Shown: one piece after another, positions 35,137 through 51,447 of the stretch
Layout of the letters: every line of letters begins with the position of its first letter
How positions within the stretch are numbered: the first letter of the stretch is position 1
Source of the DNA: Promethearchaeota archaeon
GTDB lineage: Archaea; Asgardarchaeota; Lokiarchaeia; Sigyniarchaeales; SOKP01
Reading direction: 5' to 3'
NCBI GenBank assembly: GCA_016840165.1
Contig: JAEOSU010000097.1
Location: forward strand, 1 to 60,631
Length of the DNA: 60,631 nt
Program-made: the position numbers and the translations under genes
Notes under the pieces: model-generated
The model's database searches: none
Seen by the model: only the letters and a program-made list of their open reading frames with translations
Told to the model about the DNA's origin: nothing

Positions 35137-35592
35137 TTAATCGGGGGTCAACTCGTCTAAGTCGCTCAAGTCCAGCCCCGAATCTAAGGTGTCTGGAATG
35201 TCTGACAAAAATTCATCTAAAATCTCTTTCAATTCATCGCCCGATCTCTTTAAAATCAATCTAATTAATCCAATATTGATATCCGGATCGGAGATAAGGG
35301 TTAATACACCTTTAGGACCGCAGCTTGACGCAAAGATTTTCCCTCCTGAAAATTCACTAGTTACAATTTCTAAATCTCCAAGTTCTAAATTCTTTCCTTG
35401 TTCCTCGCTCGCACAGAATACAGCACTTGCGATTGCGCCAATACCATCAACATCGGCCGGAAAGTAGGAAAATTTTGAGACACTTGCGATAGTTAACCCG
35501 GTCCTATCGACCAAAATTACTTTTTTAATCCCGCTTTCCGATTTGATTATTTTCGATAAGATATTATCAAAACTTTTGGTATCAATAGACAT
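35137..35592 (-). CDS. Roadblock/LC7 (MglB/LAMTOR-like) protein
   Basis: VILVDRTGLTIAS, IGAIASAV..ASE..G..L.LG.L, INIGLIRL; acidic tail. Confidence 0.93.
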   Translation of the reverse strand: MSIDTKSFDNILSKIIKSESGIKKVILVDRTGLTIASVSKFSYFPADVDGIGAIASAVFCASEEQGKNLELGDLEIVTSEFSGGKIFASSCGPKGVLTLISDPDINIGLIRLILKRSGDELKEILDEFLSDIPDTLDSGLDLSDLDELTPD

Positions 35593-35778
35593 CTTCTACA
35601 CCAAATCTAGTTTACAATTGAATATAATATTATTAGAATTTTAACTTTAAAATTGTTATTATTATTAAAAAAGTATATCTATATAAAAATATGTATTTGA
35701 TAACGGGTTATCAATTTACGAGTGCGAAAAATAGGAAAAGTAGCCTTTTTGAAATTAATTTCTACCTTCAGAAACATC

Positions 35779-36999
35779 TTAAAGGAGATCATTATCCTTT
35801 ACAATTTTCATATAATGGTCGCGTTCACGTCTCAGTACTTTAAGCTCTTTTTTTAAATCTAAAATTTGATTTTTAACCTCACTATCCTCCTCTTGTTTTG
35901 AGGTTAGCTGCTCTTTTAATTCTTTGATTTCGAGTTTTAAGGAAGTGATGCTGTCTATATGGATAGAATTTTGATTTTTAACTTTCTCCAGCTCAGAGCT
36001 AAGTTTTTCTAAGGATTTTTCTAAAGCTTTAACTTCGGAGTTTAAACTGCGGTTTGCAACTCTTAGATCCTCTTTCTCTAGAATAACCTTTTCATATTCT
36101 TTTCCAACATCATCGAAACCATGTAATTTCTTTTGTAATTGTTGAACTTCTTGCTCTTTTTTTTCGAATTCTTCTTTTTTCTGTTCAATTTGCGAAGTTA
36201 AGCCTTTGTTCTCATTCATCAATTTAACATTATTTTCATTCAAATCGGCCATTTGTTGGCTCCAATTTTCTAATTTGATATATTGTTCACTGAGTTCTTT
36301 TTTAAGATTATCTCTTTCTGTGGTTAAAGTAGTATTATCTGATTTTATTTCAGTAAATTTATTGGTCAATTCTCTTATTTTACTGCTTTTCTCGTTCATC
36401 AGTGATTCTAAATTTGAAATTTTCTCTTGAAATTCTTTTATCTTTTCTGTTGTATCAGGAGGAGCTACTTCTTCTGTTTTTATATCAGTTCCTTCAGATT
36501 GTTTTTTTACCTCCTCTGCCTTTTCCTTCTCTTTCTTTTCAACTTCTTCTCTTTCAACTTTACTGGTCTCACCTTCAATTGTTTCATCCCAATATGGAGT
36601 GAGCTCACCATTCTTTAGCATACCATAATATCGACCAAATATATCATCAAAATTAAGTGCTTCTTTTTTTGGTAATAATTCATAAGCTATACGCCGCATC
36701 ATCCCCTCAAAATCGTCCATTAGAAAATCATCTTCAGATAGGAATACAATTATCGCATAATTCGGTTTTCCTACATAATGTCTAAAGGAAAATCCCGTGT
36801 AAAAGCTTGAAACCGTAATCTCTTCATTGATCTTCATTTCAAGATAATTTGGTTCCATTTTTCTGGCTAAATGTTGCTCTGATAGGGATTGAAGCAATTC
36901 AGGTGTTACTTTTAGAAACTCACAGATGTTAATAGGATATTGAGTGCTAATAACTAAGTTGCCATTTTCATTAAATTCTATTATAATAATTCCTTTCAA
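35779..36999 (-). CDS. longin-like domain followed by a long coiled coil
   Basis: MKGIIIIEFNENG....QYP...SFYTG N-terminal domain; ~220 aa of heptad repeats. Confidence 0.7.
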   Translation of the reverse strand: MKGIIIIEFNENGNLVISTQYPINICEFLKVTPELLQSLSEQHLARKMEPNYLEMKINEEITVSSFYTGFSFRHYVGKPNYAIIVFLSEDDFLMDDFEGMMRRIAYELLPKKEALNFDDIFGRYYGMLKNGELTPYWDETIEGETSKVEREEVEKKEKEKAEEVKKQSEGTDIKTEEVAPPDTTEKIKEFQEKISNLESLMNEKSSKIRELTNKFTEIKSDNTTLTTERDNLKKELSEQYIKLENWSQQMADLNENNVKLMNENKGLTSQIEQKKEEFEKKEQEVQQLQKKLHGFDDVGKEYEKVILEKEDLRVANRSLNSEVKALEKSLEKLSSELEKVKNQNSIHIDSITSLKLEIKELKEQLTSKQEEDSEVKNQILDLKKELKVLRRERDHYMKIVKDNDLL

Positions 37000-37247
37000 G
37001 ATCTTTCAAATACAAACGAATTTTTTCAAAGTTTTTATTGCGATTAATTATAATTTTTTTTTCTATATCTATTTTACTCAGACCAAATTTTATTACGAAT
37101 ACATCCACATAATTGGAATGGAGCATTAATGACAATATTTTTATCTCTATAATATCAATAATAACAATTTATTTCATTTAAGAAAAAATTATATGAAAAT
37201 TCATCTAAATATAATTAAGTTCCTTGAAGTAGTTTTAACATCTTAGT

Positions 37248-38120
37248 CTACTTTTCGTTTAAATTAGAAAATAGAAACATTCCATCAAGGATCCTATTTA
37301 TTTTAATTTGATTTTGATTTATATCATCGATGATTATATCTGATTTAAAGATCCTTGTTTTTTCAGTTAAAGAGAATTGATTTTTGTCTGATAATATCTC
37401 TACGAGGCCTAATTTCTTAAGCTGATTAAGATGGATTAAAGCATCTTTATGTTGGAGATTGAAATCATAAAATAGTACATTGATATTATATGTTTTATAA
37501 ACGTCATAGTTTATTAAGATCTCTAGATCTTTTCTTAATTCATTAATTTGGTCTACTCTATTCCCCAAATTTTTAATAGAGATAATTTTTCCTAAAATCT
37601 CAGCTACATAATCATAAGTAGTCAGAAAAAAATCGGCAGCAATAGAAGTTGGAAAAACAGGGATATTTTCATTTATTGCTAAATTAGTTTTAAGAAAGTC
37701 CTTAAATGCATTTATTTTATGATGTAATAAGATTTTATCAATTAAATCAACTTTATGAAAGAAGACTACTATTGAGGCTTTTTTTAAATTCATTTCTTTA
37801 TGTATATTTAGAAGTTTAAAAAAGAAATCTTGAATTTCTTTAATATACATATTAATATCAAATACACATAGTAATAAATTAGCATTCAAAAATATTTCTC
37901 GTTCATGAGAAAACCAGTTTTCATTTTCTTGGCCTGCTAAATCAAATACTCCTAATTCATAATTAAATAGAGTAAAAATTTTTGAATCAACGCCTCTTGT
38001 AGGTTCTATACTTGTATTCATTAATTTAAATGGACTCACCATTTCAAAAAAGACTTTTTTAATTGTACTTTTACCTACACCTGGAGGACCAATAATTATT
38101 ATTTTTTTCTTCTCGAACAT
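37248..38120 (-). CDS. Rag/Gtr-like small GTPase with a C-terminal winged helix
   Basis: G1 GPPGVGKS, G2 EPTRG, G3 DLAGQE, G4 HKVD, G5 TSI. Confidence 0.88.
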   Translation of the reverse strand: MFEKKKIIIIGPPGVGKSTIKKVFFEMVSPFKLMNTSIEPTRGVDSKIFTLFNYELGVFDLAGQENENWFSHEREIFLNANLLLCVFDINMYIKEIQDFFFKLLNIHKEMNLKKASIVVFFHKVDLIDKILLHHKINAFKDFLKTNLAINENIPVFPTSIAADFFLTTYDYVAEILGKIISIKNLGNRVDQINELRKDLEILINYDVYKTYNINVLFYDFNLQHKDALIHLNQLKKLGLVEILSDKNQFSLTEKTRIFKSDIIIDDINQNQIKINRILDGMFLFSNLNEK

Positions 38121-38139
38121 AAATCTTTTTTAAAAATGA

Positions 38140-38511
38140 TTAAGCAGAATTAATTAACTTATCAATTAAGGTTCTAAACTCTTTAACCCTTATGGGTTTT
38201 GAGATATATTCATTAAACCCGGCTTTAAGTATACGCTCTTTATCACCTTTCATTGCAAAGGACGTCACAGCAATTATTGGTATATTATTGAACTTATCAA
38301 TCGCTCTTAATTCTGTACAAATTTCAATTCCATTTATTACAGGTAATTGAATATCGAGAATGATTAAGTCTGGATCACCCGTTTTAATTAATTCTAACCC
38401 TAAATCTCCTTGAGTTTCTTCAAATAATTTGATATCTGGCATAATTTGGAATATAGCACGAAAAAGCTTCATATTCTTTTCATTATCTTCTACTAAATAT
38501 ACTTTTTTCAT
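38140..38511 (-). CDS. single-domain response regulator (DivK/CheY-like)
   Basis: VEDN, LIILDIQLP (phospho-Asp), VTSFAM, SKPI. Confidence 0.95.
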   Translation of the reverse strand: MKKVYLVEDNEKNMKLFRAIFQIMPDIKLFEETQGDLGLELIKTGDPDLIILDIQLPVINGIEICTELRAIDKFNNIPIIAVTSFAMKGDKERILKAGFNEYISKPIRVKEFRTLIDKLINSA

Positions 38512-38675
38512 TTTTGTAAGTCAATTCCTAAGTTTATGAATATTATATTATACTAGCTTAGTTAAAATTCCCCTTAATATTCCTATCTTTTTAGATATCT
38601 TTATATATATCATCTCTTATGCATTATTTAAGTTTAAGGATCTAACCAGAAGTATAATACCGAAAGGAGACAAAA

Positions 38676-39992
38676 ATGGTTATAGGTCTATTACTATTAA
38701 AATGGCATAATAAACTTGGTCCATTAATTGATTTAAAATATCCCATCGATGTTAAAATTTCAGATAGTCTGATAAATAAAGTCTATACAGCTTATTCTTT
38801 TCATGATGAGAAAAAAGCACAAGATTTTATGGAAATTTCTACCAACAATTTGATAGTTTTATCCTATTGTGATATCTCTCAGATACCAGAAAAGGGATAT
38901 GAAATTGCCCTAATAATATTGGAAGAGAAGAATAGAATAAGTCTAAATAAAATAAAACAACATTTTATGAAATTTTCTAAAGAGATTTTTCAACTCACTG
39001 AAGATAGTCGTGAAAATTATTTTAATAATAACTTAGATTATTTTTTCAAAAAATCTACTGCCAAAAAAGTCTTATTATTAGGTTGTGCTGGAACGGGTAA
39101 AACTAGTATCAAGAGGATAATATTTGAAGGAGCGGATCCAAAAGTCTTACTTCTAAATCCCCTTGAACCTACAAGAGGTATAAGTCCAAATGTTTACTCA
39201 TGGCTTGATTTAAAATTAGGTGTTTTTGATTCTTCAGGACAAGAATTAAGCTACCTATTAGCTAATGAAGAAGACAGTGATTTTATTTTAGCTTTTAAAA
39301 ACACAGACATCATTGTTTATGTAATAGATTATACACTATGGAACATAAAACATAATGAAATAGAAAATCATATCCAAAAGATCTCACAAATAATTCAAGC
39401 AAGTAATCTACAAACAAAACTGGTTTTATTTGTTCATAAAATAGATTTAATCGAAATGCATGATCATGACAAAGTAATAAATGAGTTAAAACATTATTTT
39501 CAAGGAAATTTTAATTTAGACGTTTACTTCACAAGTATTCATCCAGAATGGATTTATAGTTTATATAATGCATTTTATGACCTTTTAAGTAGTTTTTCTC
39601 AAGAAACTTTAAATTTGAGATCTATTTTAAAAGATCAAATTAAAGAAATCTCAAAAGCAACGGTTTTTATCACAAATTTGCAGGATTCTATTATTGTACA
39701 GAGTATGACTAACGATTTTAATACAAATATAATTAATCGCTCACATAAATTAATTGCTGAAATTAATGAAAATTTTGAGGATATGAGTCAGGAGGGAAGA
39801 ATTGACCATCTGATTCTTTCAAGTGAGGGAAATTTTAACATTATTATGAACAATTTAAATATGTCAAAATTTGGTCTTAAGTATATAATAATTCTTTCTG
39901 AGAGTTTATCAGCAAATAAATTGATATTACTGGTTGGCCAAATAAGATTACAACTTAAAGACTTCTACTATTTAGAGAAAAAGGTATCATAA
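38676..39992 (+). CDS. longin-like + Rag-like GTPase + Roadblock-like fusion protein
   Basis: N-terminus LLKWHNKLGPLIDLKYP; GCAGTGKT, EPTRG, DSSGQE, HKID, TSI; C-terminal alpha/beta domain. Confidence 0.82.
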   Translation: MVIGLLLLKWHNKLGPLIDLKYPIDVKISDSLINKVYTAYSFHDEKKAQDFMEISTNNLIVLSYCDISQIPEKGYEIALIILEEKNRISLNKIKQHFMKFSKEIFQLTEDSRENYFNNNLDYFFKKSTAKKVLLLGCAGTGKTSIKRIIFEGADPKVLLLNPLEPTRGISPNVYSWLDLKLGVFDSSGQELSYLLANEEDSDFILAFKNTDIIVYVIDYTLWNIKHNEIENHIQKISQIIQASNLQTKLVLFVHKIDLIEMHDHDKVINELKHYFQGNFNLDVYFTSIHPEWIYSLYNAFYDLLSSFSQETLNLRSILKDQIKEISKATVFITNLQDSIIVQSMTNDFNTNIINRSHKLIAEINENFEDMSQEGRIDHLILSSEGNFNIIMNNLNMSKFGLKYIIILSESLSANKLILLVGQIRLQLKDFYYLEKKVS

Positions 39993-39994
39993 TT

Positions 39995-41536
39995 TTGAGT
40001 AAAAAAATAATTTTTATAGGACCTTCGGGAGCAGGAAAAACCACTATTAGAAAGATCTTCTTCGAAGGAGAAAACTCTAAAAAACTTCTTGAATATGCTT
40101 TAGAACCCACGTATGGTGAAGAATCATTAATTTTGAGATTACCAGGTCTTAATGAAGATATTGGAATTTTTGATTTATCAGGCCAAGAAAATCATAGATG
40201 GTTAGATACTAATGAAAATGAAATTTTTATTGATTCAAAAATAATTATTGTGGTAATAGATATAAATACTGAATTTGACCTAATATCTGATTTTATCGAT
40301 AAAGTAGCTAAAGTTCGTGATGAATTATCTTCAAAATCTATGATTTACGTGCTTTTACACAAAATTGATTTAATTGATGCGAATGAATTAAAGAAATTAA
40401 AGATCAAATCAAAAAATTCATTTTCTGACAAAAAATTATTAAAAATAATGTTTACCAGTCTCAAAAAAAAATATCTTGTTAATACTTTTTCTGATTTCTT
40501 GGTAATAATGAAATCATGCTTACTTGAGGAAGATTCTGATAGTGCTTTAGAATTTAACGTCATTGATGAATCACTTAAAATTATATCAATAATTAAAAAA
40601 GAAATAACTATATCGAAAAAAAATTTAATAGAGAAGCTAAACCGACCAGAGAAATTAATATTATATTTATTAGAGAGTTTAATGAAAAAAAATCATATCA
40701 TTATTCAAAAGATTGAAAATAATGAAATTATAACGTTGACTGATTTTGGACGAGATTATTTCTCAAGAATTATTAACTCTTTTTCACCTATCATAGATGC
40801 AAATAGCGATCTAACCTACAACTCCCATGATGAGTCATTATTACTAGATAATATACCTTATTTTTTAGGGTTTATAATCTCTGATAAAGATGGGAGAACC
40901 TTACTTAACGCCGAATCTTCTGAAAGTATATTACATAAAATTTTATTTAGTATAAAAAAAGCTGATCCTACAACAATTTCCACAGATCTGGATCTAATTC
41001 CTATGTTTATAAGTGCATTAGAAAAATTTTCGATTGAATTAAATATTCATGATCTATCGGGATTTGATTTGTCAGGGAGTAATTTAACTTTATGTGTATT
41101 AAGTTATGATATATACAACGTTATCATATTTATGAATCCTGATGTAAATTTCAAACCTTTTGAAACTAGAATTCGGAATTACTTTAGCAATATCTTCGAG
41201 GAATATACACAATTGTTTAATAAGGCTCTCAAAACAGGACAAACTGATATATTATCACCTATAATAGAAGACGCTAAAAATTGGCTTGATAATTTAAATA
41301 AATCCTATAAAAGTATGGTAATAAATTTAGAAATCATTGATATAGATCATGCAAAATTGTTATATGAAAAAATCGATAACTTATATGATAACATTAACCA
41401 AAAGTTTAATATTACTCTGGATAAAATTAAAAAGCTCAAAGTAAATTTAATGAAAGCTATATTAGAAAAGGATTATGATGAGCTTAAAATTATCTCAAAT
41501 CATGCAAAGAACTTAAGCTTAGAATATAGTATATAG
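39995..41536 (+). CDS. Rag-like GTPase + winged helix + longin/Roadblock-like domain + helical tail
   Basis: GPSGAGKT, EPTYG, DLSGQE, HKID, TSL; wHTH ending ITLTDFG; FIISDKDGRTLL...LIPMFISALEKFSIEL. Confidence 0.82.
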   Translation: MSKKIIFIGPSGAGKTTIRKIFFEGENSKKLLEYALEPTYGEESLILRLPGLNEDIGIFDLSGQENHRWLDTNENEIFIDSKIIIVVIDINTEFDLISDFIDKVAKVRDELSSKSMIYVLLHKIDLIDANELKKLKIKSKNSFSDKKLLKIMFTSLKKKYLVNTFSDFLVIMKSCLLEEDSDSALEFNVIDESLKIISIIKKEITISKKNLIEKLNRPEKLILYLLESLMKKNHIIIQKIENNEIITLTDFGRDYFSRIINSFSPIIDANSDLTYNSHDESLLLDNIPYFLGFIISDKDGRTLLNAESSESILHKILFSIKKADPTTISTDLDLIPMFISALEKFSIELNIHDLSGFDLSGSNLTLCVLSYDIYNVIIFMNPDVNFKPFETRIRNYFSNIFEEYTQLFNKALKTGQTDILSPIIEDAKNWLDNLNKSYKSMVINLEIIDIDHAKLLYEKIDNLYDNINQKFNITLDKIKKLKVNLMKAILEKDYDELKIISNHAKNLSLEYSI

Positions 41537-41553
41537 GATACTCTATTAATTGA

Positions 41554-43620
41554 TTATTTAATTTTTTTCATTATTGAAAAGTAAAAAGTAGTCCCAACTC
41601 CCAATACACTAGAAAATTTGATTTCGCCTCCATGTAACTCAATCAATCGTTTAGTTAAAGATAAACCTAAACCCGTTCCGGGAACTGAGCGTACATATGT
41701 TGAATCTACTCTTTTGAAATCCTTAAATAATATTGGAAAGTCTTTTGTATCGATCCCTATACCCGTATCAAAGACTTCAAATTCCCATTTATCATATTTT
41801 TCAAATACTTTAAATGATATAGTGCCCTCAATAGTAAATTTTACAGCGTTACTAAATAAATTTAGTAAAATTTCTTTGAATTTTAGAGGATCTGCTTCCA
41901 TCTCTATCTCTTTATCCAGTCCTTTTACTTTAAATTCTATCTTTTTCTTACCTACAAAAGGTTTTAGGCTTGATATAGTTTGCTCGACCATAGAATTCAG
42001 AGAAAAACTTTTTACATTTAGCGTTATCTGCCCAGATTCAATTTTAGAAATATTCAGAATATTTTTTATCATATCGAATTGATCTTCTGCTGAGATTTTT
42101 ATATCATTAACAAAATCTCTTTGCTCCTCCGTTAATGGACCATATACTTCTTCTAATAGTAACTCTGTAAATCCGATAATAGCATTTAATGGAGTTCTGA
42201 GCTCATGAGACATAGTTGACATAAATTCCGTCTTAAACTGGGATGTCTTTAGAATTCGGTCTAAATATTTCTTTTGTTGTTGAAAAGCAAAATTCAAATC
42301 GATTGTTCGAGTTTCAACCTCTCGCTCTAATTTTTCTTTGAATTCAAGTTCGAGAAGTTCCCGTTTCTTCTTTTCATTAATATTTTGGAAAAGAAGTTGT
42401 AAAAATATATTTTCTTCGTGGTTAATAACAGAAGCTTGCACTTCTAGCCAAATCTTATTTTTCAATTTGTCTAGGACTTGTATTTCTATGGGTTTAGGGA
42501 AATCCTTCTTGAGAAAAGCTTGGAAAGTATTTTTATAAAAATGTTTTAATTCAAATGGGAATAATGTATTAAATTCCTCAAGTGATTTACCAATTAAGAA
42601 ACTTTTTTCATATCCAAATACATTCTGAGTAGATTTATTTGCATCAACAATAATTCCTTTAAAATCAATAATGAGTATAGCATTTGGAGAATTTTCAAAT
42701 AGATTTTTATATTTTAACTCAACCCACTTACGTTTTTCAATATTGGTGAGAACGCATACCAAATTATTATTTGTATTTGTAAATAACTCAAAGATCCTGC
42801 ATTCAAATTGATGCCAATGACCTTCTTTATTTTTAAGTCTAATCTCTAATGAATTTTCATTATTATGTGACTCCTGATAGATTGCGTTTTCAATTTTATC
42901 AAAATCGTCATGATGAAGGATGCTTAAAAAGGAAAATCCAATTAGATCTTCTGATCTATACCCGAGATATTTCATAAGGGAATTTTCATTAACATTTTTA
43001 ATGATCTTGTTTTTAGTCATAGAAATAAGGATATCATTAGAAAATTGAGCAAATTTATTAAGCTTTATTTCTAAAATCTCCTTTTCTTTAAGTAAATCTA
43101 TATTCTCAAGGATCTTAGATATAATCAAAGATATTAGTTTGATATTTCCTAAACTTTCCTCAAATATTTTCTCAGAAGTATTTAATGATATTAATCCAAT
43201 ATAACCAATTAATCCTTTTTTTGAATAAATTGGAAAGGCAAAAAAAAATCGAATATTTTTCAAGATTAATAGCTCTTCGATTGATCTTGGGTTTGTTCTA
43301 TATTTATTTTCTAAATGTAATTGTACTATAGAATTATTTTTAAGATGATTATAAAACCATGGATATATATTTAAATCCAACTCATCTGGGAATAGAGAAT
43401 CTTTATTAAATTTTTCTAAAGCAACATAATGAACAAATTTAATCGATTTAAGATCTTCATTAATTAAAGAAATAAAGGAATAATCGAATTTACACATTTC
43501 ACATAATAATTTAAGGATTAGGGATAAATTCTTAATATTATCTGATTCATCTATAATATCCAAATATCTTTCGATGAATGAACTATTATTTAAATCCTTG
43601 CTCGAAATTTTTTCTAACAT
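41554..43620 (-). CDS. cytoplasmic GAF-PAS-PAS histidine kinase
   Basis: H-box MSHELRTPLNAIIGF, N-box NLFSNAVKFT, DTGIGI, GTGLGL; no TM helix. Confidence 0.95.
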   Translation of the reverse strand: MLEKISSKDLNNSSFIERYLDIIDESDNIKNLSLILKLLCEMCKFDYSFISLINEDLKSIKFVHYVALEKFNKDSLFPDELDLNIYPWFYNHLKNNSIVQLHLENKYRTNPRSIEELLILKNIRFFFAFPIYSKKGLIGYIGLISLNTSEKIFEESLGNIKLISLIISKILENIDLLKEKEILEIKLNKFAQFSNDILISMTKNKIIKNVNENSLMKYLGYRSEDLIGFSFLSILHHDDFDKIENAIYQESHNNENSLEIRLKNKEGHWHQFECRIFELFTNTNNNLVCVLTNIEKRKWVELKYKNLFENSPNAILIIDFKGIIVDANKSTQNVFGYEKSFLIGKSLEEFNTLFPFELKHFYKNTFQAFLKKDFPKPIEIQVLDKLKNKIWLEVQASVINHEENIFLQLLFQNINEKKKRELLELEFKEKLEREVETRTIDLNFAFQQQKKYLDRILKTSQFKTEFMSTMSHELRTPLNAIIGFTELLLEEVYGPLTEEQRDFVNDIKISAEDQFDMIKNILNISKIESGQITLNVKSFSLNSMVEQTISSLKPFVGKKKIEFKVKGLDKEIEMEADPLKFKEILLNLFSNAVKFTIEGTISFKVFEKYDKWEFEVFDTGIGIDTKDFPILFKDFKRVDSTYVRSVPGTGLGLSLTKRLIELHGGEIKFSSVLGVGTTFYFSIMKKIK

Positions 43621-43670
43621 TTTTTTTTAAAGTTTATTCTTTTATTGATTTAAATTTCAACATATTATTA

Positions 43671-46586
43671 TTAAAGAGACCTGAGAAAATCATGAATAGG
43701 GTCAGTTATACTCTTATATTTCTTTGGAATTGTAAAGATGAATGTTGAACCTGCACCTAACTCACTCTCGAAGATAATTATACCTCCATGCAAGTTTATT
43801 ATTCGTTTTGTAAGCGCTAAACCTAAACCAGATCCTGCGACTGACTCAACATATGCTGATTTTACTCTTTGAAAATCTTTAAATATTTTATCAAAGTCCT
43901 TTTTTGCTATTCCTATTCCTGTATCTTTGATTTTAAAAGTCCAATAATCAGCATCTTCCGAAAATTCAAGGATGATCTTTCCTTCTATTGTAAATTTTAC
44001 AGCATTTCCTATTAAATTATACAAAATTTGTTTTAATTTAACGCGATCAGCTTTAATTATTCTATTTTTTTCAATAAATTTGTATTCAATCTCTATATTT
44101 TTCTTATGAGTTAAAGCTTTAAATGTAGAAATTACATTTTCAATTAAATTATATAAATTGAATTTCTCAATGTTTATAGATAATTCTCCAGATTCAATTT
44201 TAGATATGTCTAAAATTCTTGTTATCATGTCTAGTAAATGATGGGAAGAATCTTGAATATCTGATATAAATTCTAACTGACTTTTATTCATTTTTCCATA
44301 TGACTCTTCTAGAAGTAAATCTGTAAATCCAATAATAGCATTTAATGGTGTCCGCAATTCATGAGACATAGAAGCTAAGAATTCTGTTTTAAATTGAGAT
44401 GTCTTTGCTATATGGTCTAAAAATTTCTTTTGATTTTTTAAAGCTTCATTTAGCTCATTTGTTCTTAAGACAACTTCATTTTCTAAGGATTCGTTAAACT
44501 TTTTTTGTAATTCATCGGCTTTTTTTCTTTCTGAAATATCTCTTATGATAGCTTGGAGAAAATATACTTTTCCATGTTTTTGACGATTCAAAGAAATTTC
44601 TGCATCAAATAGAGTTCCATCATTTTTAATATGTTGCCATGTGAAATTGAGGAGTTCACCATTTAATCCTCTTTTAATATAATCTAAAGCTAGATCTTTT
44701 GACTTATATCCATTTGCCTGATAAAGTGGGGAGAGATCCCAAGGAGATACACCGATAAAATCTGATTTAGAATTAAAACCATACATTTTCACAGCCATTT
44801 TATTCGCATCTATTATTTTATCTTTATCGAGTAGGAATATCGCGTCTGTTGCTCCATCAAAAACATTACGATACTTCTTTTCTGAATCTATTAATTCGAG
44901 TTCGACTCGTTTTTTCTGTGAAATATCCTGCAGTATAACTTGAATAAGTGATATTTTATTAATTGATATTAGAGAAGCGTATAATCTTACCCAGTTCAAT
45001 TTGAAATTATCGCTGAGCACAGGAATATCGATTGGAGTTATAGAATCATTCCTTAACAACTCTTTTAATTTTTCCTGGAATAAGGGCAATTTTTCCTTTC
45101 GAATTAAGTTCAAATCTATGATATTTTTTCCAATAATATCACTTTTTTTAACAGCAAAAGAATCACATACTTTTTTATTAACATCAACGATGATACCTTT
45201 AAAATCTAATAGAATTATCATTAATGGAGCTGTTTTAAAAAGATCCTTATATCTCCTTTCCGATTCTATTAATTTATCTTCAGTACGCTTTCGTTCTAAT
45301 GCATTGGCTATGATTTGAGAACAAAATTGTAACAGTGTTCTGTCATTAAAATTCCATTTACGTCGTTTTATTTCTAAATCAAATCCAATAAACCCAATTA
45401 AGTCATCATTTTTCAATATTGGACAGGAAAGTGTACCAATTATTTTATTTTTAATTAAATCTTGTTTAAAATTTTCTGCTTCGGCTGGTATATCCGCTAT
45501 ATTGTTTATCTCAATATATTGTCTATTTTTTAGGTGTTTTATTACCCATGGATATTTATTGATTGGTACTTTATTATAATAATTAACATGAGAGTCAATT
45601 CCCTCTTTACACCACTCATAAATATAATCAAATTTTAATAGATCCTTATCAAAAAGAAAAAGGTATACTCTATCAATATTTCGTTCTATACCTATGTCTC
45701 TTAAAGTGTAATACAACACATTATCAAAATCGAAATTTCCAATAAAACGGGATGAGATTGAGGTTACTAATTTTTCAAAACTTATAGTTTCACTAATAAT
45801 CCTATCTTTCAATTTACGTTCAGAGATATCCCTAACTACTACTACCGCATTCCATTTCCCATTTAAGAAAACAGAAGAAATACGGAGTTCAATGGGAATT
45901 AATTCACCATCTTTCCTTAATGCTTCCACTTCTATATATTTCCCAACTATATCTTTATTCCCAATTTTTAATAAAGATTTAATACTATTTTGAAATCCTT
46001 CATTATAATCAGATGTAAATATTTTATGAAATTTTTCCCCAATAATTTCTTCTCTGTAATATCCAAATATAAGATGGGCAGCTTTATTCCAGTATACTAT
46101 TTTCCCAGTATCATCAATTTGAATTACACCTTCATGAATTGAAGAATTTATTAATTCAATATTGAAAGTTTCCTCTTTTTTTTTAAATAAGTATTGATTT
46201 TTTACTTTACTTATAGTTCCAATAAATTTTATATCTGTTCGGGTATCTTGCTTTATGATATAACCAATGTCTTGGATTTGAAGAAAAGTACTATTATCAA
46301 TTTTGACTCTGTATTTGATATTATAATTATCGTAATTTTTACAAGATGAGAGGATAGTTTTTTTCACATAAATCTGATCTTCAGGGTGGATTAACTCTAA
46401 CCAGCTATTAAAGGTGTTATCTATTGATTTATTAATATCACACCTAAAAAATTCGTTTATTGGTCCATGAAATTTATATGTTTTCAGTTGAGTATCAAAT
46501 TCATATAATAGATGATCGACGTAGCTTTCGTAATCTTTATTTATATCGTTAGAGGATTCCGAATAATTACTTGATTGACCATACAT
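43671..46586 (-). CDS. cytoplasmic PAS-PAS-GAF-PAS-PAS histidine kinase
   Basis: IHPED and RDISERK PAS/PAC motifs; MSHELRTPLNAIIGF, NLIGNAVKFT, DTGIGI, GSGLGL. Confidence 0.95.
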   Translation of the reverse strand: MYGQSSNYSESSNDINKDYESYVDHLLYEFDTQLKTYKFHGPINEFFRCDINKSIDNTFNSWLELIHPEDQIYVKKTILSSCKNYDNYNIKYRVKIDNSTFLQIQDIGYIIKQDTRTDIKFIGTISKVKNQYLFKKKEETFNIELINSSIHEGVIQIDDTGKIVYWNKAAHLIFGYYREEIIGEKFHKIFTSDYNEGFQNSIKSLLKIGNKDIVGKYIEVEALRKDGELIPIELRISSVFLNGKWNAVVVVRDISERKLKDRIISETISFEKLVTSISSRFIGNFDFDNVLYYTLRDIGIERNIDRVYLFLFDKDLLKFDYIYEWCKEGIDSHVNYYNKVPINKYPWVIKHLKNRQYIEINNIADIPAEAENFKQDLIKNKIIGTLSCPILKNDDLIGFIGFDLEIKRRKWNFNDRTLLQFCSQIIANALERKRTEDKLIESERRYKDLFKTAPLMIILLDFKGIIVDVNKKVCDSFAVKKSDIIGKNIIDLNLIRKEKLPLFQEKLKELLRNDSITPIDIPVLSDNFKLNWVRLYASLISINKISLIQVILQDISQKKRVELELIDSEKKYRNVFDGATDAIFLLDKDKIIDANKMAVKMYGFNSKSDFIGVSPWDLSPLYQANGYKSKDLALDYIKRGLNGELLNFTWQHIKNDGTLFDAEISLNRQKHGKVYFLQAIIRDISERKKADELQKKFNESLENEVVLRTNELNEALKNQKKFLDHIAKTSQFKTEFLASMSHELRTPLNAIIGFTDLLLEESYGKMNKSQLEFISDIQDSSHHLLDMITRILDISKIESGELSINIEKFNLYNLIENVISTFKALTHKKNIEIEYKFIEKNRIIKADRVKLKQILYNLIGNAVKFTIEGKIILEFSEDADYWTFKIKDTGIGIAKKDFDKIFKDFQRVKSAYVESVAGSGLGLALTKRIINLHGGIIIFESELGAGSTFIFTIPKKYKSITDPIHDFLRSL

Positions 46587-46618
46587 TATCTTCCAAGATA
46601 TAATTTAATTGATAATAT

Positions 46619-47485
46619 TTAGGTATTGAATTCATTCAAAATTAGGAAAAAAAAGAACGTATCAAAACCTAAATTTTCCTCTAAATCTCCTTTTTTTCGT
46701 ATATTTTCTAGACCAAATTTAAAAAAATAGGCACTATCCGATAAAACAAAAGCATCCATATTATTCATGCTTTTGATCAATCCCTTTCTCTCCATATCTA
46801 TAATGCGGGATAATAGCCTTTCTTCCTTAATATTGAGTTTAACTGCTAATTTCTCAACATAAATCTGTTTATCTTCAATAGCACATAATATTGAATTGAA
46901 TTCAGCCATTTCATTTCCCTGGGATGGAATCCCTTCATAGGGAATAATACTCTTTAAAAGTTTATACAACACTCTGAAAGTATAGTAATAATTTTCCTTC
47001 GTAATTGATGTTTGAAATATTTTAAAATTGGCTCCTCGAGGGTGTTGTTTGGTCATAAATTCGCAGATTGCTTTAATCTTACGTTTAGCATACGATTGAC
47101 TTACTAAATCTATTTTATGCATAAATGCTACAATTTTACACGATTTTAAATTGAGATCTATTTGGATTTGATAGATATTTAAAAGAAACTGAATAATTGA
47201 TTCCAATGAATTATTTATATCAAAGATACAAAGGATCATGTTTGAATCATTAAAAATTGACTTATCCTCATTAGATAACCATAAATCATTTTCTTGCCCT
47301 GCTAAATCGAAAATTCCTAATTTAGAGTCCAATAAAACATAATTTGTTGAATTAAGCCCTCTTGAGGGATCCAATGGATTTTTTAGAAGAGAAATTGGGC
47401 TATATTTCTCAAAAAATGTTTTCTTTATTGAGGTTTTTCCGGTCCCTGGAGGTCCTATTAAAACTATCTTTTTACTAGACATCAT
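46619..47485 (-). CDS. Rag/Gtr-like small GTPase with a C-terminal winged helix (paralogue of 37248-38120)
   Basis: GPPGTGKT, DPSRG, DLAGQE, HKID, TSI; VEKLAVKLNI...MERKGLI wHTH. Confidence 0.88.
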   Translation of the reverse strand: MMSSKKIVLIGPPGTGKTSIKKTFFEKYSPISLLKNPLDPSRGLNSTNYVLLDSKLGIFDLAGQENDLWLSNEDKSIFNDSNMILCIFDINNSLESIIQFLLNIYQIQIDLNLKSCKIVAFMHKIDLVSQSYAKRKIKAICEFMTKQHPRGANFKIFQTSITKENYYYTFRVLYKLLKSIIPYEGIPSQGNEMAEFNSILCAIEDKQIYVEKLAVKLNIKEERLLSRIIDMERKGLIKSMNNMDAFVLSDSAYFFKFGLENIRKKGDLEENLGFDTFFFFLILNEFNT

Positions 47486-47501
47486 ATATCTAATTATTCT
47501 C

Positions 47502-48191
47502 CTATTTAATTGATGAGGACATAGGTTCTTTAAGCGCTTCGATTATATCAGCACAAGAGTCAAGCATCATTTCAATATAACTTAAAATATCTTCTTGGGA
47601 TACACATCCACCTAGATTAATCTGTTCCTTAATTATATCACAAAATCCTTGGATTGTATTAACACCACTTCGAATTTGTAAATTAATTGATTCAAGGGGT
47701 AATACTTCTCCTTTCTTCATATAAATCTCACTTACGTCTTCAAAAAATTTCTCAAATGCTGCTTCATTGTCAGATAATACCAGATTGATATCTAATTTAT
47801 GAAAGATCATACCAATTCTTTTTAAATGTAATATAGGGATGAGTGGATAAGCAACATCACGTAAAATTATAATAGCATAAAGCTGTTTTCCTCCTCTCGC
47901 ATTTGGATCCTGAATCTCGATCTTATATACTTGAGCATAGAATTGGTTGAAATCTAAAATTACAAATTTATTCTTTGTGTTAAGTGCGTCTCTTAATAAG
48001 TTCCGAATAAAGATTAAATCCTTTAATGCAATAGATGAATACAACGATCTTGGACCTAAGATATGATCATATTTTCCTATTATAATAACAAATGGGTATT
48101 TATCTAAAGCTTCCTTGAATTGAAAATATGGTTCCTTGGTATTATCAACCAAATTACGACCTAGCGAATCTTTTCTAATTGAATTTACCAT
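47502..48191 (-). CDS. folliculin/uDENN-like longin domain fused to a His-less HisKA (pseudo-DHp) domain
   Basis: YDHILGPRSL and IQDPNARGGKQLYAIII; the C-terminal SINLQIRSGVNTIQGFCDII aligns without gaps to SMSHELRTPLNAIIGFTDLL of the nearby kinase. Confidence 0.72.
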   Translation of the reverse strand: MVNSIRKDSLGRNLVDNTKEPYFQFKEALDKYPFVIIIGKYDHILGPRSLYSSIALKDLIFIRNLLRDALNTKNKFVILDFNQFYAQVYKIEIQDPNARGGKQLYAIIILRDVAYPLIPILHLKRIGMIFHKLDINLVLSDNEAAFEKFFEDVSEIYMKKGEVLPLESINLQIRSGVNTIQGFCDIIKEQINLGGCVSQEDILSYIEMMLDSCADIIEALKEPMSSSIK

Positions 48192-48389
48192 TATCTTGAT
48201 TAAAATCCTAATTAAAGAATATGTGGAAATAGATTTTTGTTATAAAGTTTTAATAACTTTTGTACCAATAATATTAATTTGCATATTTAATATTAACTAT
48301 AATAGGGTATTTTGTTTGATTGACACACAAAAGAATAATTTGTGTTCATAATTCTATAAATTTATATAATTTAAGTTTATTAGTTATTC

Positions 48390-49862
48390 ATGTCAGAATC
48401 ATCAAAAATAATCGTTAAATATTTTTGTGATAGATTTTTAAATATTGATTATTATCCGACTTCCCTTAAAGCGATACTTGATTTAGAGCTTAACTTTTTG
48501 AGAGGAATCAACAACGAAGATATTAAAAGGTTTTCCAAACTAGATATATTCACTTTACGAGACCTATCTGGAGTCCAAGTAGAAGATCTTCAGAAGAAAG
48601 CAAGTAAAGTAAACCTTGACCTCACAACCTTTAAAAATGCTATTATTGCCGCATATTTAATAGCTAACTCGTGGAATAAAAGAAAAATGTACATGAAAAA
48701 GCCAAAAATGAAGGTTGTTATTTCAGGTTTAGACTATGCGGGGAAAACCTCTCTTATTAATCGACTTATAAATGATTATAATTACAATGATATGATAAAC
48801 CTTGAACCAACTGTGGGTGCAAATGTAGAGGAGTATCAATCAGAACGTTTAGACCTGGTTTTATGGGATTTAGGAGGCCAAAAAGACCATATCAATGAAT
48901 ATTTAGCTTCACCTGAAAGATTCTTTGTTCATGTAGACGTAATGATTTTTGTCGTTGATTCGCAAGATGATATTCGATATGATGAAGCGTTGCAGTATCT
49001 AAATGACCTTATAGACATTTTAGGGTTTTTGAATGAATCTCCATATATAGTTATTTTACTTAATAAAGCCGATTCTGATGTAATAAAAGATCCCGATTTT
49101 CAAATTAAATTGGAATATTTAATGGATAGAATTTCAAATATCTTTATGAAAAGTGAAACCCCTTGGAACTTTGAAATGATACCAACTAGTATTTATAATT
49201 ACTATTCTTCTGAGCCTGAAATTGCCAAAAGCATTAAAAGTATCTTTTCGAAGGAGAAGGAAATGCTTGATACTGGAAAATTGCTTCCTGACATCAACGA
49301 TAAGTTACAGAAAATCTTAGATGTAAATTTGAAATTGATGGATAAAGTTGTGGTGGAACTCAATGAAGTTAGGAGAATATTACACCAATTTACCCCTTCT
49401 GATATATCTCAATCACTTTTTTCAATCCCTTTCGAAAAAGTACCTATTGATTTCATATCAAATGAAGATTTTAGAGGAGAACAAAAAAAGGAAAAGCATA
49501 AGAAGAAAAGGGGGTCAGCAAGTAAGACAGTTAGCCAGAAGAAGAAATTTGGACCCCCAAAAAGGTTGGAAAAATTAGAGAAACCTGCTGAACTGGTAAA
49601 TAATTCTGAAGAGACTAAGAAAATTACAAAGGATCAGATAATTGAAGCTAAATCAAAACTTTCCACAGAAATTTCACAAAAAGAAGACATAAGCAAACCT
49701 CCTACAGCACCTAAACCAAATGATATTATGTTGAATATGCTTAAACCACCACCTCCACCTAAGATCACATCTAATTTAGAATCAGGACACGAAAATGTAA
49801 GAACCCAAATAATTACTGAATTAAAAGATATGTTTATAAAAAGAGGTTTAGTAACAAGATAA
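48390..49862 (+). CDS. Arf-like small GTPase with an N-terminal HhH-like domain and a Pro-rich C-terminal tail
   Basis: GLDYAGKT, PTVGANVE, WDLGGQ, FVVDS.D..R, LLNKAD; tail contains KPPPPPK. Confidence 0.88.
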   Translation: MSESSKIIVKYFCDRFLNIDYYPTSLKAILDLELNFLRGINNEDIKRFSKLDIFTLRDLSGVQVEDLQKKASKVNLDLTTFKNAIIAAYLIANSWNKRKMYMKKPKMKVVISGLDYAGKTSLINRLINDYNYNDMINLEPTVGANVEEYQSERLDLVLWDLGGQKDHINEYLASPERFFVHVDVMIFVVDSQDDIRYDEALQYLNDLIDILGFLNESPYIVILLNKADSDVIKDPDFQIKLEYLMDRISNIFMKSETPWNFEMIPTSIYNYYSSEPEIAKSIKSIFSKEKEMLDTGKLLPDINDKLQKILDVNLKLMDKVVVELNEVRRILHQFTPSDISQSLFSIPFEKVPIDFISNEDFRGEQKKEKHKKKRGSASKTVSQKKKFGPPKRLEKLEKPAELVNNSEETKKITKDQIIEAKSKLSTEISQKEDISKPPTAPKPNDIMLNMLKPPPPPKITSNLESGHENVRTQIITELKDMFIKRGLVTR

Positions 49863-49908: not shown

Positions 49909-51447
49909 TTAACTAAAAATTTGAGATAGTATATTATTAATTTGAACTTCATCATTAGCTAAATAGCATTGCTTAAATACTGACGCAAAAAATGCCCGAT
50001 CTTGAGGACTGAAATATTTATATCCAAATTTTTGCCATTTAATAGATTTATTCAAAGGAGCGAAAAGCGAGATCTTATTTTTAACTAAATCGGTGAGTAA
50101 TATTGGAATCTCCTCCTTTGTATTATTATTGACACTATTGATTACAACGTCCTCGCTAAATTGATTCCAGGATTCCTTGAACTGTAAACAGAAACTTTTA
50201 ATGTCGATACGGTTGTTAACAATGAGTTTAGCCAATCCTAAAATCGCAAGTTCATTTGATGTATGAGCGTTCGTGGGGTGGGAAATAATAGTACCTGGTA
50301 ATGTCTTTCCTTTTTCATTAATTAGTGGCAAATTATATTCAGGTAATACTCGTATCTGATTTAATCCTAATATGTTTTTCACATCTTTTATCGTCCCTCC
50401 CGTATCAAAAAATCGCTTATTGATAATATAGATTAGTAGCTTTGTTGCATGAATATCTCCAAAGTAAGGATAATCAGATGCATATAGTATATACTCTGAC
50501 CAGTCTCTATTATCCACAGGATATTTATTATTCACACGAAACCATTTACGGAAATCTTCAAGAAAGTTTCCTGCACCCTCTCCATGCAGCATTGATAAAT
50601 CTCCATAAGTATTCGGTTGAACTATAGCATTATAAACCTCATAATCACCTATATTTCCCTGCGCAAAATGGGCAATGATGACTTTAAAATGGGGTAATAA
50701 ATTAGGATTTAGTTGTTCAATGGCACTTCTGGCAGACTTCACCAATTCTGCTATATCTAGGATTGAACCTCTCCCTCGAGTATCAAAAATAACGGGCATA
50801 GAATGTTTTGCTGCCTCAATAAGAACATTAACTGTTTTTGTAGAATTAATATTATCAATCCATCGTTCTGAACGAGGATGTAACTTTAATCCTCTCAACC
50901 CTAAGACTTCTCGAGCATATTTTACCTCATTAACCGCTTTTTGGCCTTCCATCGGGTCAACGCGAGCATATCCAATTAATTTCATGGAAAAAGGAAACCG
51001 GGTCGTAAATCGCGAAACATTTATATTACTTGCGCGATAGAGTGCTTCGGGATATTTATCTCGGAAAACATCTTGAAAGGGAAAAACAGTACCTTGGTCA
51101 ATGAAAGAATAAAATTTAGCTTTTTCCTTCAGATCTGAGTATCTCTTACCCAATTCCTCCAAGGCTGTATATAATTTATTAGTAAATGGATATGGGGTAA
51201 AAGACCAGCTTAATTTAGCTGGAGTTCCATCAATAGTCGTATGGAAGGTTTGTTCTCCATTCTTTTCCCACTCTGCGGTGATTCGGCCTTGTATATTTCC
51301 CCAAAAATCAAAAGTACCTGTACCTGGTGCGAGAGGGTTCATCATCGTAGCACCATCTACATCCTCACCCAAATGGGAATGGGCATCCGCCACAAAAATA
51401 TGGTCGATTCTCTTTTTGCCACCTTGCTCTATAGTTGCAGTTAACAT
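49909..51447 (-). CDS. amidohydrolase-family metallohydrolase with a C-terminal extension
   Basis: DAHSH, GLRGLKLHP, IIAH, YASDYP. Confidence 0.87.
   Translation of the reverse strand: MLTATIEQGGKKRIDHIFVADAHSHLGEDVDGATMMNPLAPGTGTFDFWGNIQGRITAEWEKNGEQTFHTTIDGTPAKLSWSFTPYPFTNKLYTALEELGKRYSDLKEKAKFYSFIDQGTVFPFQDVFRDKYPEALYRASNINVSRFTTRFPFSMKLIGYARVDPMEGQKAVNEVKYAREVLGLRGLKLHPRSERWIDNINSTKTVNVLIEAAKHSMPVIFDTRGRGSILDIAELVKSARSAIEQLNPNLLPHFKVIIAHFAQGNIGDYEVYNAIVQPNTYGDLSMLHGEGAGNFLEDFRKWFRVNNKYPVDNRDWSEYILYASDYPYFGDIHATKLLIYIINKRFFDTGGTIKDVKNILGLNQIRVLPEYNLPLINEKGKTLPGTIISHPTNAHTSNELAILGLAKLIVNNRIDIKSFCLQFKESWNQFSEDVVINSVNNNTKEEIPILLTDLVKNKISLFAPLNKSIKWQKFGYKYFSPQDRAFFASVFKQCYLANDEVQINNILSQIFS

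Follow-up and report, generated by a model that had tools for sequence, protein, structure and literature searches.

A block of eleven genes at positions 35137-49862 of the window, the 60,631-nucleotide contig JAEOSU010000097.1 of a Promethearchaeota archaeon (assembly GCA_016840165.1; Lokiarchaeia, Sigyniarchaeales), represents an accessory signalling module that is conserved in Loki-type (Promethearchaeia) archaea. Two histidine kinases and a stand-alone receiver are encoded together with five Rag- or Arf-like GTPases, and the kinase genes are preceded by that for LDHp229 (genes are named here by a short tag and the residue count), which is predicted to be an NPRL2/FLCN-type longin fused to a DHp hairpin that lacks its histidine. 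The two-component system is probably coupled functionally to the GTPases through this longin, with the signal running forward from kinase to GTPase. The evidence comes from the domain make-up of LDHp229, from conservation of its operon across related genomes, and from a second cassette in the same genome in which a putative longin follows a receiver.

Results

The two halves of LDHp229

LDHp229 is read as a coupler because one half appears to be a longin of the GTPase-activating protein (GAP) type and the other is homologous to the DHp domain of the adjoining kinases. An alignment of 28 orthologues is the basis of its AlphaFold2 (AF2) model and of the conservation counts given here. The model (predicted local distance difference test, pLDDT, 81.5) contains a strand-strand-helix-strand-strand-strand-helix domain (residues 35-131) followed by a helical hairpin (166-192, 199-228). 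Foldseek aligned the first domain at probability 1.0 with NPRL2/NPRL3 of GATOR1, the yeast SEA complex, FLCN and the Loki longin 8yqg, with root-mean-square deviations of 4-5 Å across about 130-150 residues, and the Pfam family Folliculin is matched weakly by 27/28 orthologues. The hairpin profile aligns with the DHp of the adjoining kinases over both helices (hhalign 92.8%, E 4e-7); HisKA is matched by 11/28 orthologues (best E 1.8e-4), and Pfam finds no HATPase_c domain in LDHp229. Leu171 aligns with the phosphorylated histidine, in a register that is the same against a solved kinase, and the position is Leu, Met, Ile or Val in 27 of the 28 sequences, with His in one divergent paralogue and one fragment. 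An earlier note, made from the letters of the window alone, had called this product a longin-pseudoDHp protein, a description borne out by the Foldseek matches to NPRL2/FLCN and by the homology of a hairpin from which the His has been lost.

GAP-type longins such as FLCN, NPRL2, SMCR8 and C9orf72 are recognised by a GP motif that opens the second strand and lies beside an arginine finger, and the same signature has been reported in one class of Asgard longins (PMC12290439). D42, L45, G46 and P47 of LDHp229 are invariant across the 28 sequences, strand 2 of the model spans residues 46-52, and the spacing of Y41-D42..G46-P47 equals that of W33-D34..G38-P39 in C9orf72 (PMC12290439). The loop A98-R99-G100 is similarly constrained, with G100 invariant and A98, R99 and nearby Q103 at least 90% conserved, a pattern that makes Arg99 a candidate arginine finger. 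Neither a DENN nor an NPRL2-type C-terminal domain is present in LDHp229, whose C-terminus is the DHp-like hairpin, and no partner longin subunit was identified. A complex prediction for two copies of LDHp229 with GW288, the adjoining GTPase, scored 0.01; run without controls, this score carries no weight on either side of the question of binding. LDHp proteins form a small family, with 37 clusters at 50% identity in a set of 1.84 billion representatives.

The divergent paralogue mentioned above (L035:1902-2528; genome G031, contig C133) keeps the His within the motif SHHVR, lacks the conserved Arg loop and sits among kinases and receivers; P0007 and P0026 are comparable. Possibly this paralogue acts in phosphotransfer like Spo0B and represents the ancestral state from which the His-less form arose.

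Conservation of the neighbourhood

For the synteny survey, up to 10 kb was fetched on each side of LDHp and the open reading frames (ORFs) were labelled by BLASTP against the window proteins. This gave 38 distinct LDHp loci from species-representative genomes, 29 of them informative, that is, with at least two downstream genes visible. Orthologues of LDHp229 occur in three other genera in two further families of the order as well as in the genus of the source genome, and also in 28 species-representative genomes of a public collection. A kinase is present in the fetched DNA at 31/38 loci. In 23 of the 29 informative loci, spread over three families of the order, a same-strand kinase lies at most two genes downstream of LDHp, the gaps in these operons being mostly 12-60 bp, and in 16/29 a GW288/GW290-type gene stands directly between the two. 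The order of LDHp and kinase is kept at LDHp identities of 46-55% (genomes G028, G031, G036 and G038), while the gene for the Arf-type protein and those of the Rag-like pair switch side and orientation. LDHp keeps its GP and Arg motifs even at loci with no GTPase-winged-helix gene, so that GW288 cannot be its sole target.

The remaining members of the block recur around LDHp at varying frequency. An Arf490-like gene lies in the fetched region at 28/38 loci (an orthologue of at least 45% identity at 20), LGR438 at 20/38 and GWL513 at 16/38, the last two usually paired, and a REC123 orthologue of at least 50% identity at 16/38. No protein of the block is better conserved than REC123, whose orthologues are 53-76% identical and, as far as contig ends permit, map within or next to the block. 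The earlier note had named absence of this neighbourhood from other Lokiarchaeia as grounds for giving up its proposal; the neighbourhood proves to be conserved across related genomes.

Within the genus, LDHp (10/24 genomes), REC123 (11/24), GWL513 (11/24) and Arf490 (8/24 plus one fragment) occur in essentially the same genomes, and all four are absent from 13/24, several of which are at least 98% complete. The REC123 orthologue is found in 10/10 LDHp-positive genomes of the genus versus 1/14 LDHp-negative ones. Because the block is present in about 10 of the 24 genomes and reappears in other families, it behaves like an accessory island that has been lost or transferred repeatedly. Robl151 and LonCC406 are only loosely tied to it: a Robl151-type gene lies beside the block in one related locus only, and LonCC406 follows the receiver gene in three loci (L028, L037 and L053).

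A second cassette and further fusions

The best argument that these parts work together, with the signal passing from kinase to receiver to longin to GTPase, is a cassette elsewhere in the same genome (G000 contig C47:14688-18435; L064:5689-9436). Its four same-strand genes, with gaps of 26-57 bp, encode in order an ArsR-type winged helix, a 182-residue Rag/Arf-like GTPase, a MASE3 membrane kinase and a 296-residue response regulator, and this order is kept in three further genomes of the genus. The output domain of the regulator carries WDDK[FY]GP and ERFG[EQ]KQY in all four genomes (WDDKFGP and ERFGEKQY in the source genome) and aligns colinearly but weakly with the longins of LDHp229 and LGR438; by these motifs the regulator appears to be a receiver fused to a GAP-type longin. 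Since the receiver precedes its output domain, the direction would be from kinase to longin. The parts list matches that of the window but is divided differently among fusions, the winged helix in the cassette being a separate gene beside the GTPase.

A first homologue search for longer relatives of LDHp229 returned none, and a full hidden Markov model search then gave two clusters of PAS-longin-DHp fusions (P0016 and P0018; L068:2549-3724; about 390 amino acids), which adjoin a divergently oriented gene for a 472-amino-acid Gtr1_RagA protein. A gene of the Cas_NE0113/Cas_APE2256 family adjoins that same GTPase gene. In P0024 (556 amino acids) and P0036 (203 amino acids), profile search found three to six tandem HisKA hairpins and no ATPase domain.

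GTPases and their tails

Pfam and motif reading agree with the earlier note that the block holds four GTPases with an HK(I/V)D motif and one of Arf type. The four Rag-type proteins match Gtr1_RagA above the cut-off and have HKVD or HKID as G4, GxxGxGK[ST] as G1 and DxxGQ as G3, while Arf490 carries WDLGGQ and NKAD. G1, DxxGQ and G4 are kept in 5/5 block GTPases, with no sign of decay.

In the AF2 model of GW288 (pLDDT 86.5) the G domain extends to residue 180 and is followed by three helices, a wing of two strands and two further helices. The top Foldseek matches of the G domain are Gtr1, RagA, RagC/D and LokiRagO, and the tail profile matches winged-helix DNA-binding regulators of archaea and bacteria in the PDB, first PF0095 (E 3.7e-5) and then Lrp/AsnC, MarR, ArsR/HlyU, Sso10a and TFE; an Atlas feature search gave no usable match for this tail. 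Homology joins the GW288 tail, the GW290 tail and residues 175-270 of GWL513 (hhalign 93-99.8%, with GW290 at 99.8% to GW288), and some GWL513 orthologues match winged-helix Pfam families directly. These tails are winged helices of the DNA-binding type, in agreement with the claim of the earlier note that three of the GTPases carry such domains. The Roadblock tail typical of Rag/Gtr proteins is absent from GW288 and GW290, where the winged helix stands in its place.

The Gtr1_RagA profile is covered over positions 1-226 of 232 by LGR438, whose tail comprises residues 300-438. At its N-terminus W10-D11..G15 is conserved and resembles the WD..GP of C9orf72, and this region aligns weakly but colinearly (hhalign) with the receiver-longin domain. 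The genes for LGR438 and GWL513 lie 2 bp apart and are paired in most related loci; they probably correspond to the type of Rag-like operon pair in MK-D1 for which Tran et al. 2024 (PMC10933270) modelled a heterodimer.

The earlier note had listed several longin-like domains. The fold is well matched for LDHp229, and the others are weak leads: the N-terminus of LonCC406 gave an Atlas score of 0.84 to an NPR2-labelled cluster, and that of LGR438 was likewise below 0.85. Profile-profile comparison linked the putative longin or Roadblock domains of LonCC406, LGR438, GWL513 and Robl151 neither to each other nor to LDHp229. The longin nature of the LonCC406 and LGR438 N-termini is thus unproven, with a likeness at the level of motifs for LGR438.

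The locus

The source genome is 3.6 Mb and 99.7% complete, the window being its contig C86, and the public sequencing runs that contain window DNA are marine sediment metagenomes. The genes of the block and the landmarks within LDHp229 are collected in Table 1. Gaps are 16, 32 and 50 bp along the series 48191>47485>46586>43620, 19 bp at 38511>38120, and 2 bp at 39992/39995, the first two sets as the earlier note had given them. Its reading of two soluble PAS/GAF histidine kinases, a receiver-only regulator and a Roadblock protein is confirmed by the Pfam domains. A membrane helix was taken to be indicated by a hydrophobic 19-mer in the translated product; none was found in any block product, so HK971 and HK688 are considered soluble.

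The block is not a chance pile-up of GTPase and kinase genes. The genome has 38 Gtr1_RagA-matching genes among about 3250 ORFs, and the probability of five GTPases within 12 consecutive genes is about 1e-7 by chance, or about 4e-4 once all positions are allowed for. Immediately outside the block, X512 has orthologues, 58-85% identical, that adjoin the block at 9/38 LDHp loci, and it may belong to the module.

Table 1. Genes of the block, its conserved neighbour, and sites within LDHp229 (positions in the window)
Feature	Positions	Strand	Description
Robl151	35137-35592	-	Robl_LC7 2.3e-10, MAPKK1_Int 6.5e-7 (Pfam); LAMTOR3-like; block edge
LonCC406	35779-36999	-	Coiled-coil Pfam matches; N-terminal longin-like domain a weak lead; long coiled coil
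GW290	37248-38120	-	Gtr1_RagA and predicted winged helix; GW288 paralogue; 19 bp after REC123 gene
REC123	38140-38511	-	Response_reg alone, E 5e-24; D9, D53, T83, K105
LGR438	38676-39992	+	N-terminal WD..G domain, possibly longin-like; Gtr1_RagA (residues 131-358); C-terminal domain
GWL513	39995-41536	+	Gtr1_RagA, predicted winged helix, C-terminal region with no recognised fold
HK688	41554-43620	-	PAS, HisKA, HATPase_c; soluble
HK971	43671-46586	-	PAS-PAS-GAF-PAS, HisKA, HATPase_c; H-box intact; soluble
GW288	46619-47485	-	Rag-type GTPase (1-180), predicted winged helix (190-248), two helices
LDHp229	47502-48191	-	Predicted GAP-type longin (about residues 33-131) and His-less kinase hairpin (166-228); proposed coupler
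Arf490	48390-49862	+	Arf, E 1.5e-23; N- and C-terminal extensions; divergent from LDHp229
X512	49909-51447	-	512 amino acids, no Pfam match; conserved neighbour
YD..GP motif codons (Y41-D42-H-I-L-G46-P47) of LDHp229	48051-48071	-	Start of second strand
Arg99 codon of LDHp229	47895-47897	-	Candidate arginine finger; hairpin loop between strands 84-94 and 102-112
Pseudo-DHp helical hairpin of LDHp229	47508-47696	-	Leu171 (47679-47681) at phospho-His position

Discussion

A forward path through the block can be proposed in which the PAS/GAF kinases HK971 and HK688 would sense an intracellular cue, autophosphorylate, and then phosphorylate the dedicated receiver REC123, a pairing that we infer from the shared presence and absence of these genes across genomes. 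Either the kinase DHp or the phosphorylated receiver would dock on the His-less hairpin of LDHp229, which would also serve to dimerise the protein, and docking would alter the GAP activity of the longin (YD..GP, Arg99) on GW288, on Arf490 or on the LGR438/GWL513 pair. The nucleotide state of the winged-helix GTPases would in turn set their binding to DNA or to partners as the output. The full version, a complete pathway from kinase through G-protein to DNA in which kinase and receiver control the longin GAP via the degenerate hairpin and the GTPase-winged-helix proteins are transcription factors, is a tentative proposal and on balance a doubtful one. If true, it would represent a prokaryotic forerunner of GATOR1/FLCN-Rag control in which the kinase acts before the GAP and not after the GTPase, and it would define a new class of DNA-binding proteins gated by GTP.

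The same parts could instead be wired in reverse, with the state of a GTPase acting through the LDHp229 longin and the His-less DHp gating the kinase, either by forming a dead heterodimer with HK971 or HK688 or by releasing them. In eukaryotes Rag GTPases act upstream of a kinase. A His-less DHp with no ATPase domain fits a dominant-negative or regulatory kinase partner, and the adjacency of LDHp to a kinase is more constant than its adjacency to a GTPase. The order of events is also unsettled in the conservons discussed below, where accessory proteins control the kinase (PMC13343842). However, the C47 cassette puts the same type of longin behind a receiver and hence downstream of phosphorylation, conservation of the GP and Arg signature suggests catalysis on a GTPase and not passive sensing, and the GTPases carry winged helices that have the look of outputs, which together make reverse wiring unlikely.

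A further possibility is that the island brings together an ordinary two-component system and an ordinary GTPase/longin system that are linked but separate, LDHp229 being a longin regulator that its DHp-like hairpin serves solely to homodimerise and the kinases signalling elsewhere. Helical hairpins are common as dimerisation devices, block-wise gain and loss could be explained by physical linkage alone, and kinase-GTPase proximity is not general in related genomes. Two unconnected systems would sit poorly, however, with the retention of same-strand LDHp-kinase order and short gaps across three families while the flanks rearrange, and with a hairpin whose homology is specifically to HisKA, including the motif around the lost His. 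Fusions of receiver with longin and of PAS with longin and DHp exist, and the REC123 orthologue tracks LDHp through the genus; mere co-residence is on this evidence quite improbable. Chance clustering of expanded paralogue families that share no function, for which one could cite the 38 Rag/Arf-like GTPase genes and about a dozen kinases of this genome and the wealth of both in Asgard genomes, is very improbable given the density of GTPases calculated above and an order conserved in dozens of genomes, and is already contradicted by the synteny survey.

Several points nevertheless weigh against forward coupling through LDHp229. The GTPase-winged-helix gene is absent from about 45% of LDHp-kinase operons and so cannot be an obligate target; this absence and the loose ties of the Roadblock and coiled-coil genes detract from the proposal of the earlier note that kinase input is converted into GTPase nucleotide state by a hybrid of the two systems, whereas the receiver-longin cassette favours the flow from kinase to GTPase that it envisaged. 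The DHp hairpin of LDHp229 could serve only as a dimerisation device. Arg99 cannot be aligned to known fingers because the LDHp229 profile, compared with the PDB, did not reach the FLCN and NPRL2 sequences. The surveyed genomes are kin, and counts among them overstate independence; block-wise presence and absence may also reflect physical linkage alone, adjacent genes being lost together. The conserved block is for these reasons a module in the genomic sense and not yet a pathway. The closed genomes of two relatives hold about 4 and 1 kinase-GTPase pairs within 6 kb (counted by eye) versus roughly 2 expected, and in one closed relative the DHp half finds no match, the only weak hit there being a 169-amino-acid longin-only homologue with no kinase nearby. 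A general wiring of kinases to GTPases genome-wide was considered and rejected, since proximity is near chance in two closed relatives outside the specific cassettes.

The general idea has a precedent in the work of Liu et al. (bioRxiv 10.1101/2020.10.19.343400, Fig. 5c; later Nature 2021), who reported many Asgard fusions of an NPRL2-like longin with two-component domains and proposed that growth regulation stays centred on two-component systems with 'eukaryotic' regulators. The organisms and the idea of longin regulators joined to two-component signalling are the same as here, and LDHp229 itself may be among the fusions of that figure. The portion of their text available to us concerns domain fusions and, to that extent, does not describe a multi-gene block, a His-less DHp, GTPase-winged-helix fusions, a dedicated receiver or block-wise presence. 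A search of full-text literature combining Asgard, longin and histidine kinase found nothing further; neither the conserved block nor its pseudo-DHp coupler, dedicated receiver or GTPase-winged-helix fusions were found described, most subscription journals lying outside the coverage of the search. The 'new system' of the earlier note is nonetheless an overstatement, with these fusions and the same logic in print and conservons of kinase, Roadblock protein and GTPase known in bacteria.

In the conservons of actinobacteria (CvnA kinase, CvnB Roadblock, CvnC, CvnD GTPase) one operon likewise combines a kinase, a Ras-superfamily GTPase and a regulator of the Roadblock/longin superfamily, a classical DNA-binding response regulator is lacking and the GTPase is posited as output (PMC4316618, PMC13343842). 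Their GTPase belongs to MglA group 2 and is used with MglB, whereas the block uses Rag/Arf GTPases and a predicted GAP-type longin with a pseudo-DHp; the conservon kinase is a membrane HAMP protein with an LPxR tail, whereas the block kinases are soluble PAS/GAF proteins with no such tail, and the block has a receiver. DUF742 was not found in the source genome, which is 99.7% complete. Membership of the conservon class was rejected on the soluble kinases, the lack of DUF742, the Rag/Arf GTPases and a Roadblock gene 11 kb from the kinase operon. Another bacterial precedent is the Frz-RomR-MglA/MglB system of Myxococcus xanthus (PMC3441718), in which a His-Asp phosphorelay is connected through a receiver protein to a small GTPase with its Roadblock-fold GAP, although the GTPase is of the bacterial MglA type, the output is polarity and there is no longin, pseudo-DHp or winged helix.

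Eukaryotic longin GAPs act on Rag or Arf GTPases, GATOR1 (NPRL2-NPRL3) on RagA/B, FLCN-FNIP on RagC/D and C9orf72-SMCR8 on Arf (PMC12290439). They share with LDHp229 the longin fold and the GP at strand 2; LDHp229 also has a conserved Arg as a candidate finger, and Rag- and Arf-like genes adjoin it. Unlike them, LDHp229 has a kinase-hairpin tail in place of a DENN or NPRL2 C-terminal domain and no heterodimeric partner, and the input to the block would come from histidine kinases as opposed to amino-acid sensors, with no lysosome or TOR kinase. The G domains of the block are of the same family as Asgard Rag-like GTPases (LokiRagO, PDB 8yl2), the winged helix of GW288 and GW290 replacing the Roadblock tail. 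Tran et al. 2024 (PMC10933270) described the MK-D1 operon pair of Rag-like GTPases, a predicted heterodimer, and found GTPase genes generally outside operons with regulators; kinases are not mentioned.

GTPases of the Rag-, Arf- and Rab-like kinds number in the dozens in Asgard genomes, and longin and Roadblock proteins are equally numerous. Which regulator pairs with which GTPase, and what signals they receive, is the question that the block addresses. Genome layout rarely helps to pair GTPases with regulators (Tran et al. 2024, PMC10933270), and a 2025 paper in Traffic asks whether the partners of the GP-motif Asgard longins are Rag- or Arf-like GTPases. The block names candidates for both: one putative GAP-type longin with a Rag-like and an Arf-like GTPase as direct neighbours and a Rag-like pair a few genes away, together with two sensor kinases and a dedicated receiver, all of them small soluble proteins suited to expression and assay. 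In sum, the block is real, conserved and mechanistically suggestive, with the general idea already in print, and its practical value is that the open matter of longin-GTPase pairing in Asgard archaea is narrowed to a few soluble proteins. Should the coupling prove correct, the control of Rag/Arf GTPases by longin GAPs would predate eukaryotes and would first have been driven by a His-Asp phosphorelay, with the GTPase-winged-helix fusions as its candidate transcriptional output.

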